From the IMG/VR virus record IMGVR_UViG_3300028584_001239: 64,000 nucleotides of DNA, one strand, 5' to 3'. Below the pieces are notes generated by a model. The model made no database searches and was not told where the DNA came from. It was given only the letters and a program-made list of their open reading frames with translations. This document shows positions 1-4,470 of this stretch, piece by piece. Position numbers and translations under genes: made by a program. The stretch comes from a virus. The first letter of the stretch is position 1. The number at the start of each line of letters is the position of its first letter.

Positions 1-828
1 CAGTTCTTTTGGGCCAGAATCTTCCCCAGCAATAATAATCCCTTCTTGGCTATTGTGAATATTTAAATTTAAACAATTATGTTTTTTTTGAAAAAAACCT
101 TTTTCTTGATAACCTAATACCAAATCTATACCACCTTTATAGGGAGCAAACATTGAAGTAAATTTTGCTCTCGCTTCATTGCGTTCTTTTAAAATATTCA
201 CATCCACAGCACCATCGTTAAAGCTTGAACTTTTTGGTTCAAAAGAAGGTACTGGAATAACCACTGAACCAGAGGTTGATTTTATAACTTGGGCATGGTT
301 GGCTTCCACCTGTAGAAGTCTTCGTGTAATAAGGTCTTTTTGCAGTCTATTTTTAGCTTCTCGATCAACAACTTCTTGCGTCCAGACTAAAAAGTCTTCC
401 AGTGTGAGCTTATTTTTGTGAAGAAGTGAAAGTTGGCTGAATAATGCACCTTCTTTATAGTTCATGGATTCATTGACATTCTTCAATGCATAATAAAATT
501 CACGTTTACCTTCTTCTTTGAGAAATTCAATAAGATTCAAATGAATGTGTTTATGTGATTTTATTGCGAAATCATAAAGATCAAAATAAGTTTTATAATG
601 ACCAACACCATAAATAGATTTTATTTTTTGGCTGACAGGCTGGTTATATAAGTTAACCAGCATATCAGTAAGTGATGAAACCCCCTCTTTATCAATGACA
701 CCTGTCAAGGTATCAATACAATTTAACTCCATAACGTTCAAACGTTTTGGAGTGATGGCTAAATAAAGACTGAGTGTATAATTTTTATACATGTTCCTTG
801 GTTCAAGCATACCTGCCTTCATATCCAT
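1..828 (-). CDS. Hypothetical protein, 3' end runs off the window; paralog of 22165..23607, possible degenerate P-loop/coupling-protein-like domain
   Basis: Absent from ORF track; manual translation gives an open frame from ATG 828 to base 1 (MDMKAGMLEPRNMY...GIIIAGEDSGPKEL). Shares YGV..YFDL, EFYYALKNVNESMNYKEG and LGYQEKGFF with the 480-aa protein. Confidence 0.85.
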   Translation of the reverse strand, partial: MDMKAGMLEPRNMYKNYTLSLYLAITPKRLNVMELNCIDTLTGVIDKEGVSSLTDMLVNLYNQPVSQKIKSIYGVGHYKTYFDLYDFAIKSHKHIHLNLIEFLKEEGKREFYYALKNVNESMNYKEGALFSQLSLLHKNKLTLEDFLVWTQEVVDREAKNRLQKDLITRRLLQVEANHAQVIKSTSGSVVIPVPSFEPKSSSFNDGAVDVNILKERNEARAKFTSMFAPYKGGIDLVLGYQEKGFFQKKHNCLNLNIHNSQEGIIIAGEDSGPKEL

Positions 829-899
829 GATTAATCTTCTTTTTATATTATATTATACTTAAATTTTACATATGAGTGTGTGATTGTCAACGTTTTTAT

Positions 900-1080
900 T
901 GGCGTCAAAAATAGATCGTGATAGTTGACATCCTCCCCATGTCTAAAGACAGGGGATTCCTACTGCTAGAAGGCCATGTCCGACCTCAAGTATATTCTTA
1001 GCGGAATTTTCATCCCGGTTGTGTGTGTCACCACACACACGACAAGTCCATACTCTTATTCGCAGCCCATCTAATCCTTT
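900..1080 (-). ncRNA. Predicted TnpB omega/reRNA (scaffold overlapping tnpB 3' end and RE; guide begins at 924)
   Basis: Inferred from established TnpB biology: RE hairpin plus TCAA end followed by flanking guide CTATCACGATCTATTTTTGA; 5' boundary is approximate. Confidence 0.5.
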
Positions 1081-2013
1081 CGGCCCAGTTAAGGACTTAC
1101 ACGAATGACAGGTGCGGGTAGTGTTTCTTTCGTCTACATTTACATCAGTATGTATGCCTGCGTTATCGCATTTATATACCAGCATACTTCTTGTCATGCC
1201 GTGAGCGGCATCTAATGTAGACTTTCCTCGTTTGGCTTTAAGCATTTTCTTAATGCTCAAATCACCTACATAAATTTCACTGTATTTTTTAACTAAATGA
1301 CTTGTGAATTTATGCAGTGTGTCTTTTCGAATATTTGCTATTTTAGCATGTATTGCTCTCGTTCTAACTTTGTTGTTAGAACGTTGAGCAATGGCTAATT
1401 TCTTTTCATAAGAACGATAGATTCTGTTCTTTTCTGTTTTAAAACCATCACTACAGACAGCGGATTCTTTAAAACCAAGATCAACCCCAACAGATCCTTG
1501 ACCGGAAGATAAGGTTCGTGGAATTTCAACAACCACGTTGAAATACCAACGACCGCGAGCATCTTCATTGAAAGTTGCATTTTTAAAGGTGTATTTTGAA
1601 AGGCCATAACTGTCCCAAACAGAAAAATAATGCCCATTAAAATAAACTTGACCATTTTTCCAAGAAGCTGCTTTTGTGTTAATAGGAATCCAACCAAGTG
1701 ATCGTTTAGAACCACTTGTTTTTCGCCATTTTAATTTATTCTTTTTAAATTGTTTGCGTCTTGTTGCATATTCTTTACAAATAGATTGAACGGTTTGACT
1801 GTGCAAACCTAATTCTTTTGAACAACCATCGGTATATTTTTGCAAATCAAAATTTGAAAGGAATTTTTGACGTTCTTGAATAAATCGGGAACTTAATTCA
1901 TTGACATAATTCCAAACAAAGTTCACGTTCTTTGCCATTTGGCAAAGAACTGAAACATGTTTGTCTTTAACTCTAACTTTGAGAGTTTTAGTGATATAAG
2001 TGAGTTCATTCAT
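943..2013 (-). CDS. tnpB: RNA-guided endonuclease TnpB
   Basis: N-terminal TLKVRVK/NFVWN, RuvC-I GVDLG, RuvC-II region YVGDL with alternative E in VDERNTT, Zn finger CHSC..CRVC, RuvC-III NRDENSAKNI. Confidence 0.95.
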   Translation of the reverse strand: MNELTYITKTLKVRVKDKHVSVLCQMAKNVNFVWNYVNELSSRFIQERQKFLSNFDLQKYTDGCSKELGLHSQTVQSICKEYATRRKQFKKNKLKWRKTSGSKRSLGWIPINTKAASWKNGQVYFNGHYFSVWDSYGLSKYTFKNATFNEDARGRWYFNVVVEIPRTLSSGQGSVGVDLGFKESAVCSDGFKTEKNRIYRSYEKKLAIAQRSNNKVRTRAIHAKIANIRKDTLHKFTSHLVKKYSEIYVGDLSIKKMLKAKRGKSTLDAAHGMTRSMLVYKCDNAGIHTDVNVDERNTTRTCHSCKSLTGPKGLDGLRIRVWTCRVCGDTHNRDENSAKNILEVGHGLLAVGIPCL

Positions 2014-2021
2014 GGTTAAAG

Positions 2022-2050
2022 ATTATATATGGAAGAAGTATAAAAGTCAA
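2022..2050 (-). promoter_or_regulatory. sigma70-like promoter inside IS left end driving near-leaderless tnpB
   Basis: TTGACT-N17-TATAAT, only 8 nt before the ATG. Confidence 0.7.
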
Positions 2051-2212
2051 ACAAAGCAGAAAAATTCATCCCCATAGCTAAAGCAAGGGGCTTTCTTTTT
2101 CCAAAAACATGGTAAAAATAAGAAAACAAACGATAATCAGTAAAAAACAAAAATAGTTGTGTATTAGTTATATATATGCTAGTATAACTCGATTAATTGA
2201 CAGGAGTTTACA

Positions 2213-2782
2213 ATGAGTTTTTTAAAGCAATGTGAAAAATTCAAGACATTTTCTAGTCTAAAATATATCATGACTACCGGCCAATACTCAGGTACAGACA
2301 CAAATGCTTTTATTTTGTGTAAAGGGCTGACCGAATATAACTACCAGTCAGACGATCTTAGTTTGGAAGCAATACAAAAACAAATCATCAAGGATAAACT
2401 TAATGGTGTTTGGACATCAGGTTTAACCGACTATATGAAAATGTTAACTGAAAGCTATTACAAGGAAAGCTGGTCAAAGCGACATGAAATGTTAATAGAG
2501 ATAGTAAATCTAAATACATTAGCTACTTTTTCTGGAAATTTTAATAATTACAAAGTTGCTCTGACCAAAGATAGCTACACCATTCAAATGACCAGCAATC
2601 ATTCCGTATTGTTTACGTTAATGGATAATGGAAACATAAGAATGGACAAGGTATTGAAAGGAGATGAAGTACAAAAAAGAGATTACATTTTTGATAATGT
2701 AAAAGAGTTTATACATTTTGTAAATAATATTCAAGAACATCTAGAAACAGATGACAGAGTTTTGAAAATGGCTTTGATTTGA
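2213..2782 (+). CDS. Hypothetical protein with C-terminal MxxI motif
   Basis: SD CAGGAG; ends DDRVLKMALI. Confidence 0.8.
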   Translation: MSFLKQCEKFKTFSSLKYIMTTGQYSGTDTNAFILCKGLTEYNYQSDDLSLEAIQKQIIKDKLNGVWTSGLTDYMKMLTESYYKESWSKRHEMLIEIVNLNTLATFSGNFNNYKVALTKDSYTIQMTSNHSVLFTLMDNGNIRMDKVLKGDEVQKRDYIFDNVKEFIHFVNNIQEHLETDDRVLKMALI

Positions 2783-2854
2783 AAGGATGAAAAACCAGTT
2801 CCTTTTTTCCGCCATTCATGATATAATAGCCACATTGTTTAGAGAGCATTAATT

Positions 2855-3208
2855 ATGACAAATGCAGACAAAAAGAACACTTTAAAATATAAAACAAACG
2901 AACACTTGGTGAGACTCATCAACAACGGATGTGCTAGCTATAAATATACAGAAAACGAGTATGTTGAGTTTCTAATTAAAAAAGGACTTTATGCGTTTGA
3001 AGAACGCATAGAACATGAAAATCCATCCAAAGTATTAGCACACATGAAAGATGCAATGGAATTCTTTAATTTTGCGGATGATAAATTATCTACAATGGAA
3101 CTTGAGCGTCAAACAGCTCTTAATCTGAAGTTAACGTGTAAAGAATTTGAAAAAGAGATTGTAGAATTAACAACAATGTTTATTTGTTACTCCATACTAC
3201 GAGACTAA
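2855..3208 (+). CDS. Hypothetical protein
   Basis: 117-aa ORF, upstream promoter-like TATAAT and SD-like GAGAG. Confidence 0.7.
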   Translation: MTNADKKNTLKYKTNEHLVRLINNGCASYKYTENEYVEFLIKKGLYAFEERIEHENPSKVLAHMKDAMEFFNFADDKLSTMELERQTALNLKLTCKEFEKEIVELTTMFICYSILRD

Positions 3209-3219
3209 AGGAAATTATT

Positions 3220-3462
3220 ATGACTATCCAATCACGTCTATCTAAATATAAATCACTGAAATATCAACATGCTATCAAACATCGTCTTCGTTACTTTGTT
3301 GAAGGCTATATTGATCACATGCAAGGTGCTAATTTTAGCATGACACCTTATCCACTCAGTCCAACTCCGTCCTATGCTTGTGACAATGAAAAAACCAAGC
3401 GTAAATACTGGAGCCGTGGTTATTGGGCTGCAGAACGTATCGCTAAACGTAAGAGGGCGTAA
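3220..3462 (+). CDS. Hypothetical basic protein
   Basis: Start reassigned to ATG 3220 after AAGGAA; operon-like spacing. Confidence 0.7.
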   Translation: MTIQSRLSKYKSLKYQHAIKHRLRYFVEGYIDHMQGANFSMTPYPLSPTPSYACDNEKTKRKYWSRGYWAAERIAKRKRA

Positions 3463-3464
3463 TT

Positions 3465-3677
3465 ATGACATTTACCATCATCGGTCTATTTCTTCTTTGT
3501 TGGTTTTTGATTGGTCTTAGTTCTGGATTTATTTGTTCTTGGATTGACTCCAAATATAATGGATTTCGTTTTGATTATACGGCTGCCTTCAAAATGTCTT
3601 TTCTAGGCGTATTGCTTCTTATTTGGATACCAATTTTCTACACACGATCTAAAAAAGAACAAAAAATTCGGTGGTAG
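3465..3677 (+). CDS. Small two-TM membrane protein; paralog of 45808..46032
   Basis: Two hydrophobic stretches; CWFLIGLSSGFICSWID matches SWFIVGFIGGILCSGVD. Confidence 0.7.
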   Translation: MTFTIIGLFLLCWFLIGLSSGFICSWIDSKYNGFRFDYTAAFKMSFLGVLLLIWIPIFYTRSKKEQKIRW

Positions 3678-3681
3678 TTAT

Positions 3682-4470
3682 TCAAATCACCATCATTCTT
3701 AAAAGTGAAACATAATCTTCATTAAACATATCAGTGTCTATATCAAGGTTATGTTTAACCACTGCTTTATAATGAGTCGCAAATTCATTGTCAATCAAAA
3801 CAGAAAATGATTCTAAGTCAGAAAAACAATAATCAACGCCAATGTAACCATCTGGGCTTTGCTTAATTTGTTCACAATTGATATGCCACACTCCATTTAA
3901 TTGAGTAATCATTACATTGAAAAGAGTTTGATTGGCGTCTGCATAGGGAATAGGCAATTGAAATAAATAGACTTCTGTTAACTGGAATTGTTCGTTAAAT
4001 AGATATTGTCTACTCATCACAAGATCTCGATATTTTCTTTTACTCGACAACATGCCAACAACATCAAAATGAGTTTTGAAACGAGATGTAAATTCAAGCT
4101 TATTTTTATTGTTCAATCTGTTTAATATATTCTTCTGATGACTCTTATTCTTGCGTGGGTCATAGATTTTATATTTTTCGGCTGCTGTATAGATGATATT
4201 AAACATTTCCAAAATATAGTTGTTATCAAGTGGAATGTAATCTAATGATGACAAAAGAAATAACTTATCTGCTAGATTTGAGCCAAGGAAAGATACATAA
4301 TGAGTATCTTTATTAATTCTCAGAAAAGATCGTCTAATATTACCTTTAAAACGGTTAGGCACAATATCATAAAAAGAACGTTCTTCATCCAATCGGTAAT
4401 CTTTCAACTGTGGCATGATATGGTTGAGTAAGCCAATCTTTGGAAATTCTAAATTTAAGAATTGTTTCAT
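3682..4470 (-). CDS. Hypothetical protein with C-terminal MxxI motif
   Basis: 262 aa; ends YVSLLRMMVI. Confidence 0.85.
   Translation of the reverse strand: MKQFLNLEFPKIGLLNHIMPQLKDYRLDEERSFYDIVPNRFKGNIRRSFLRINKDTHYVSFLGSNLADKLFLLSSLDYIPLDNNYILEMFNIIYTAAEKYKIYDPRKNKSHQKNILNRLNNKNKLEFTSRFKTHFDVVGMLSSKRKYRDLVMSRQYLFNEQFQLTEVYLFQLPIPYADANQTLFNVMITQLNGVWHINCEQIKQSPDGYIGVDYCFSDLESFSVLIDNEFATHYKAVVKHNLDIDTDMFNEDYVSLLRMMVI

Follow-up and report, generated by a model that had tools for sequence, protein, structure and literature searches.

The interval 925–2111 of the 64,000-nt stretch of DNA analysed here (the window) is a real, precisely bounded tnpB-only IS200/IS605 element with IS608-type ends, read on the minus strand (Table 1). 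We consider it likely that this is a recent, polymorphic, non-autonomous IS608-type element which a TnpA supplied in trans excises, whose TnpB cuts the excision joint and which repair then restores. The element family, the IS608-type ends and the RIIr-5/TnpB2-type nuclease are known already, and the element is an ordinary member.

Table 1. Features of the element and its immediate flanks (window coordinates)
Feature	Coordinates	Strand	Basis
Whole tnpB-only (IS1341-type) IS200/IS605 element, non-autonomous, 1,187 nt	925..2111	minus	Exact skip in public contigs; empty alleles; relatives' ends
Target tetranucleotide TTAC (CL), predicted TAM, outside the element	2112..2115	minus	Before 10 close copies and in empty alleles
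Left DNA guide (GL), AAAG	2091..2094	minus	Same as IS608 GL (PMC5934647)
Left subterminal imperfect hairpin (2090–2070) with 3' AT foot	2068..2090	minus	Pattern search; relatives
Sigma-70-type promoter TTGACT-17-TATAAT, 11/12; ATG 8 nt downstream, no Shine–Dalgarno sequence	2022..2050	minus	Predicted
tnpB, 356 aa; stop codon within right-end hairpin	943..2013	minus	NF040570, PF07282, PF01385; fold
RuvC-I Asp178 (DLG)	1480..1482	minus	121/121 homologues
Gly250 at canonical RuvC-II Glu position	1264..1266	minus	121/121 homologues; aligns with ISDra2 E278
Predicted alternative catalytic Glu295, six residues before first CxxC	1129..1131	minus	121/121 homologues; position as Ealt (PMC10711439)
RuvC-III Asp334 (RDEN)	1012..1014	minus	121/121 homologues
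Predicted omega-RNA scaffold core, overlapping tnpB 3' end	925..1055	minus	17-locus alignment
Right DNA guide (GR), GAAT	956..959	minus	17/17 loci; same as IS608 GR
Right subterminal hairpin	935..955	minus	Pattern search; folding; relatives
Right cleavage site (CR), TCAA, final bases of element	925..928	minus	17/17 loci; unrelated sequence beyond
Flank predicted to become RNA guide (CTATCACGATCTATTTTTGA)	905..924	minus	Comparison with empty alleles

On the minus strand, the left end reads TTAC (2115–2112), 17 nt, AAAG (2094–2091), the hairpin CCCCTTGCTTTAGCTATGGGG (2090–2070) and AT, and the right end reads GAAT (959–956), a hairpin (955–935), AGGATG, TCAA (928–925) and then the predicted guide CTATCACGATCTATTTTTGA. 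The first-pass annotation, made from the letters alone, had described these ends as closely following IS608. Both hairpins and the AAAG/TTAC and GAAT/TCAA pairs were indeed in place, but GL lies at +18 to +21 and not at the +16 to +19 of IS608. Hairpins at both ends, GL–CL and GR–CR pairs and insertion at a fixed tetranucleotide without target duplication make this an IS608-type member of IS200/IS605. Only tnpB fits between the ends, and the Y1 HUH tnpA that marks an autonomous IS605-group element is not found inside them, so the member is a tnpB-only, non-autonomous one. Two occurrences of the hairpin pattern were found in 64 kb, where 0.06 would be expected, and none of 100 shuffles reached that number; the pattern was derived from these same two copies, and the real test is the relatives. 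Folding of the left-end DNA alone was no better than that of shuffled sequences (z −0.1), as is expected of an imperfect hairpin, for which the evidence is conservation. The neighbours are two divergent genes of unknown function, with the element upstream of the left gene and 35 nt from its −35 box; given this intergenic position, the element interrupts nothing.

Contigs from four public studies (X1, X2, X4 and X12) were compared with window positions 1–4000. In X1 and X4, from two of these studies, the sequence is joined from 923 to 2111, a skip of 1,187 nt which, with one ambiguous letter, corresponds to exactly 925–2111. In X2 and X12, from the two further studies, the element is absent and TTAC is kept, with divergence locally beside the site. 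Loose contig ends in the same comparison break at the same two element boundaries. Contigs reached via the right-hand gene (L007–L014 and L016) allowed the empty site to be read directly, with no duplication; in L007–L014 the sequence is TTAC/CTATTACGATC. The empty allele that the first-pass annotation expected in related genomes therefore exists in the predicted form, both as the 1,187-nt skip of X1 and X4 and in L007–L014. X1, although empty, has just 3 base differences from the window over 1–923, which makes the insertion recent and polymorphic. Contig depth in X1 and X2 was greater over the element than over its flanks, depth not being copy number. Beside this site, L009–L014 also carry a variable 10-nt tandem repeat (CTGTCAATA-type unit) in 2–4 copies, just upstream of the ribosome-binding site of the homologue of the gene at window 2213–2782; the window has a single copy of the unit at ~2194–2203.

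Ten relatives with 77–97% DNA identity, one of them truncated, were found at unrelated sites. All ten start with TTAC/C, the nine complete copies all end in TCAA, and the sequence beyond TCAA is unrelated. A second locus obeys the same rule, being filled in L071 and empty in L072–L074, with the empty allele TTTAC/AATC. The junctions of the ten relatives and the empty allele of the L071 site thus all fit the TTAC and TCAA boundaries first drawn, and the proposed target TTAC both precedes ten close copies and is retained in the empty alleles of two independent loci. GL itself varies among relatives, being AATG in L001 and L002 and AAAT in L068 and L071. The former changes the third GL position, the one unpaired with the target in IS608; the latter changes the fourth, and its copy L071 keeps the TTAC boundary. 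A boundary shifted by one base in the AAAT relatives was considered and rejected on the TTTAC/AATC sequence of the empty allele. Two copies that are 99.9% identical (L066 and L067) lie 53 kb apart on a single 1.04-Mb contig. With copies at many sites and a polymorphic site, the subfamily is mobile.

Damaged copies were also seen. L082 (G002:101697–101717 and flanks) is a collapsed remnant of 52 nt, made up of TTTAC, the 5' part of the left end, AATG, a single hairpin and TGGATG TCAA; the left end runs into the right end at the hairpin, tnpB having been lost, which leaves a minimal PATE-like footprint that directly precedes the Shine–Dalgarno sequence and ATG of a gene. In L015:3860–5089, on a 1.84-Mb contig, tnpB, promoter and right end are intact and the left hairpin is missing, giving an immobilized copy; its tnpB compared with that of the window gave a dN/dS of 0.10, so the gene is still under purifying selection despite the absent hairpin. 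L032:2501–3569 has a 20-nt internal deletion and a frameshift; the intact copy L022, which occupies a different site, shares 98% identity with it.

A tnpA was found neither in the window, nor in ~163 kb of close-clade loci, nor in 907 kb of related records, the last searched with the Y1_Tnp profile as three related-replicon fragments from IMG/VR. A divergent 139-aa ORF upstream of the L015 tnpB was rejected as a TnpA because it has no HUH motif. Relatives with 48–59% protein identity carry Y1 tnpA genes, mostly divergent, the distant TnpA ORFs being called by DHVH and W-S/T-x-S-Y-F motifs, length and position. Two distant relatives, L048 and L057, combine a Y1 tnpA with a TTTAC...AAAG left end; from these matching sequences, compatible TnpA helpers plausibly exist. 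Mobilization by tnpA in trans, as originally suggested, is the usual account of such elements and agrees with recent transposition, but the helper was not located in the sequence searched. That no searchable part holds a tnpA, and that decayed or collapsed copies exist (L032, L015 and L082), would also suit a copy stranded in a host with no compatible TnpA, where neither excision nor TnpB action takes place and the element merely hitch-hikes. We regard this as unlikely, since a strain with 3 base differences over 1–923 lacks the element at this site, near-identical copies at different sites indicate recent transposition, and every end motif of the window copy is intact.

Promoter-like matches in the region overall were not above chance (7 versus 5.8). 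Ten close relatives, however, keep TTGACT and a TATAAT-like −10 hexamer (TATAAT, TAAAAT, TATACT or TAAGAT) 6–8 nt ahead of an ATG, with a divergent spacer between the two hexamers, and this pattern supports a real near-leaderless promoter within the element, as had been predicted from the window copy with its ATG 8 nt downstream. At the other end of the gene, the tnpB stop codon falls within the right hairpin, so that the predicted omega-RNA overlaps the gene. The last 130 nt of 17 loci gave a consensus fold of 30 pairs, 12 of them with two-sided changes; GAAT and TCAA are invariant across the 17 loci, and conservation ends at TCAA. A single-sequence fold of the predicted omega-RNA had a z of −1.7, and an Rfam search with it gave no real match. 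At the level of sequence, the right end thus has the properties of an omega-RNA scaffold with a sharp scaffold/guide boundary at TCAA.

The protein matched the TnpB profile NF040570 (guided_TnpB) with 196 bits against a cut-off of 100, as well as PF07282 and PF01385. Its motifs are VGVDLG (D178), YVGDL (G250), VDERNTT (E295) and NRDENSA (D334), E295 lying 45 residues beyond G250. All four residues are invariant in 121 of 121 homologues, and the zinc-finger cysteines are kept in 120–121 of the 121. The glycine at RuvC-II and the glutamate further on, both noticed in the first reading, are therefore not peculiar to this copy. A homology search with TnpB returned 6,879 matches among 8,000 scored, the best 120 of which include proteins from Pseudomonas, Azotobacter and Halomonas; the rearranged layout is common. 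The motif is that of the published RIIr-5/TnpB2 rearranged clade, a placement made by motif. Comparison of tnpB with five close copies gave dN/dS values of 0.05–0.11, which signify purifying selection and so function, though not specifically nuclease function.

An AlphaFold (AF2) model of TnpB (pLDDT 84) gave ISDra2 TnpB (8h1j) as its best Foldseek match (TM 0.73, E 1.9e-18) and mimivirus Fanzor2 (9b0l) as its fifth structural match. In the model, E295 comes after the strand 288–293, and the Fanzor2 match begins at residue 291 of TnpB and 463 of Fanzor2; if the first match columns are ungapped, E295 would be the counterpart of the tested Fanzor2 residue E467. The likeness to Fanzor1 that had been suggested holds for the alternative glutamate, but this glutamate is common to Fanzor1 and Fanzor2, and the Fanzors have DPG where the window protein has DLG. 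Membership of the Fanzors or pro-Fanzors, which goes with DPG and with an IS607 or eukaryotic transposon setting, was rejected on the DLG (residues 178–180) at RuvC-I and the Y1-type hairpin ends, and the link to Fanzor is one of shared active-site layout only.

Loss of the canonical RuvC-II glutamate could point to a weak or dead RNA-guided binder with a regulatory role, for example repressing the 890–863 promoter of the excised allele or modulating transposition, and the neighbouring gene does have the guide target 15–35 nt upstream of its −35 box. Such a role is very improbable: the two aspartates and the alternative glutamate do not vary among the homologues, guides vary by site whereas exapted repressors have fixed guides, DNA cutting is known for enzymes of this layout, and Fanzor2 cannot do without its alternative glutamate. 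The suggestion of a compact active nuclease is instead upheld as a probability by purifying selection and by active related enzymes in the literature, and we conclude that the element is probably functional and its TnpB probably an active nuclease.

The guide matches its own donor joint perfectly, and guides differ at every site among relatives. An exact search of IMG/VR with the 20-nt guide gave no match, and no TTAC-plus-seed self-target with two or fewer mismatches was present within the window. At guide position 5 (window 920), the window has C, and T was found in 8 of 8 readable close empty alleles and in the X12 allele; the eight alleles represent two strain types from several studies, and X1, X2 and X4, in which the base is unreadable, are excluded from the count. 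The predicted empty site thus proved correct as to the TTAC joint but not as to the guide, which has a seed mismatch to natural IS-free alleles. TnpB seeds of ~12 nt are mismatch-sensitive (PMC13639567, PMC12781874), and the mismatch at position 5 makes retention better supported than homing between genomes. A main role in homing into IS-free alleles on co-resident replicon copies, whether phage or plasmid, would spread the element at this site; it forms part of a published model (PMC8612924), and IS-free alleles with an intact TTAC are common in nature. The seed mismatch nevertheless weighs against it, as do the lack of a second filled copy of the site among the loci and contigs examined, where coverage holes prove nothing, and the failure to find phage hallmarks in the related-replicon fragments searched, and we hold homing as the main role to be doubtful. 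The more specific proposal of homing against IS-free alleles of co-infecting phages was not borne out, for the same two reasons of seed and hallmarks. Retention at the element's own excision joint, a model already published (PMC8612924 and 10.1101/2023.03.14.532601), fits these sequences better than homing between phages.

Under the retention model, and by analogy with IS608, a Y1 TnpA from elsewhere would bind both hairpins on single-stranded DNA, the AAAG and GAAT DNA guides would bring TTAC and TCAA into place to be cut, and the element would peel out as a circle and reinsert 3' of another TTAC. From its own promoter, a nearly leaderless tnpB mRNA would read through the right end into the flank, and the 3' part of this mRNA would be processed into an omega-RNA with the flank as guide. 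TnpB, acting through a D178/E295/D334 site, would then cut TTAC plus guide as its TAM and target, precisely the sequence that excision of the element itself leaves behind, and repair from a sister replicon copy would restore the element. Counting against this explanation are the unsuccessful search for tnpA, the fact that PMC10278001 reports a single RII-r5 ortholog as active, and the decaying close copies L032 and L015.

The first-pass annotation spoke of co-infecting phages, and a phage is no more than one possibility for the replicon concerned. Window proteins are recorded on a 1,851,360-bp contig of ~32% GC with bacterial promoters and genes that are mostly unknown and paralogous, and no phage hallmark was found in the searchable related fragments: Terminase_6N, Gp23 and Phage_sheath_1 gave no match in three of these, which are parts of replicons only, and the Gp23 control also matched nowhere. 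Few window genes are recognizable, namely those for adenylate kinase, an FMN glutamate synthase-like protein, AlkB, a Dam-type methylase, Pth2 and HNH. No relatives were found for the flanking proteins in IMG/VR or for the left flank among GenBank phages, and even the best matches from plasmids, phages or GTDB genomes are remote. The replicon may be a giant phage or a megaplasmid. Megaplasmids that are AT-rich and dominated by hypothetical genes have been described (10.1101/2025.09.30.679422); they reach 1.58 Mb and carry as many as 11 TnpB genes, and their likeness to the window replicon is one of resemblance only. Related contigs of 1.0–1.86 Mb occur in several metagenomes, and IMG/VR calls parts of them viral. 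Related megabase replicons (L072:162–1433, L067:18974–20302 and L066:18447–19595) gave matches to seryl-tRNA synthetase, a PAS-MCP chemoreceptor, a T4-like RNA ligase and RegB, accessory genes partly of cellular and partly of phage-like type.

Contigs carrying close TnpB relatives are 1.86, 1.84, 1.54, 1.28 and 1.04 Mb long, with 29–36% GC where measured and mostly hypothetical genes. Subfamily members with 74–98% identity were traced to AT-rich contigs of 1.0–1.9 Mb or fragments thereof, whereas GTDB genomes, PLSDB plasmids and GenBank phages yielded none. We tentatively propose, as a possibility about which we remain in some doubt, that a compact (356-aa), TTAC-targeting subfamily of rearranged TnpBs is confined to undescribed AT-rich replicons of 1.0–1.9 Mb, in which it moves without a tnpA of its own. 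If so, the subfamily, whose target, guide and natural empty alleles are in hand, would allow the rearranged RuvC of a mesophilic bacterial enzyme, for which no collateral cutting is predicted, to be tested directly, and would serve as a marker for such megabase replicons. The megabase replicon is probably of more interest than the element.

The element leaves the understanding of IS200/IS605 and TnpB unchanged. It adds a cleanly bounded, probably active RNA-guided nuclease that is very small, has a predictable TAM and is represented in nature by both filled and empty alleles; since the catalytic rearrangement of the clade has been tested in few members, it is of use both as a candidate tool and for testing. 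Modest evidence from nature on the choice between retention and homing comes from the mismatch of the seed to the natural empty alleles.

Among known systems, IS608 (ISHp608 of Helicobacter pylori) shares with the element CL TTAC, GL AAAG, GR GAAT, CR TCAA and two subterminal imperfect hairpins (PMC5934647). The IS608 bases A+42/T+43, which form base triplets (PMC5934647), match the AT at the 3' foot of the left hairpin, and neither element duplicates its target. Apart from the position of GL, the window element differs in having no tnpA, and its TnpB is catalytically rearranged whereas that of IS608 belongs to the typical clade (PMC10691335). With the RIIr-5/TnpB2/DphiG-Ealt TnpBs (PMC10691335, PMC10530073, PMC10711439), the window protein shares the RuvC-II Glu-to-Gly change, an alternative Glu that follows ~45 residues later and precedes the zinc finger by six residues, a RuvC-I DLG motif and a C4 zinc finger; its RuvC-I to Ealt spacing of 114 residues is just below the 120–160 of the published pattern. 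RIIr-5 (Glu to Gly) is the largest rearranged group (PMC10691335), and one RII-r5 ortholog has been reported active (PMC10278001). TvTnpB of Thermoplasma volcanium, a rearranged IS605-family enzyme, cleaves without collateral activity (PMC10530073); compared by description, it shares the rearranged site but is archaeal and thermophilic, with an NTGAC TAM and tnpA in cis. Fanzor1, Fanzor2 and the pro-Fanzors share the alternative glutamate but have DPG at RuvC-I, and the pro-Fanzors are IS607-associated (PMC10711439), in contrast to the DLG and Y1-type hairpin ends seen here. ISDra2 TnpB, the best structural match, has the canonical E278, a TTGAT TAM and 408 aa, with 22% identity to the window TnpB in the structural alignment; in both, the omega-RNA, predicted in the case of the window, overlaps the 3' end of the gene.
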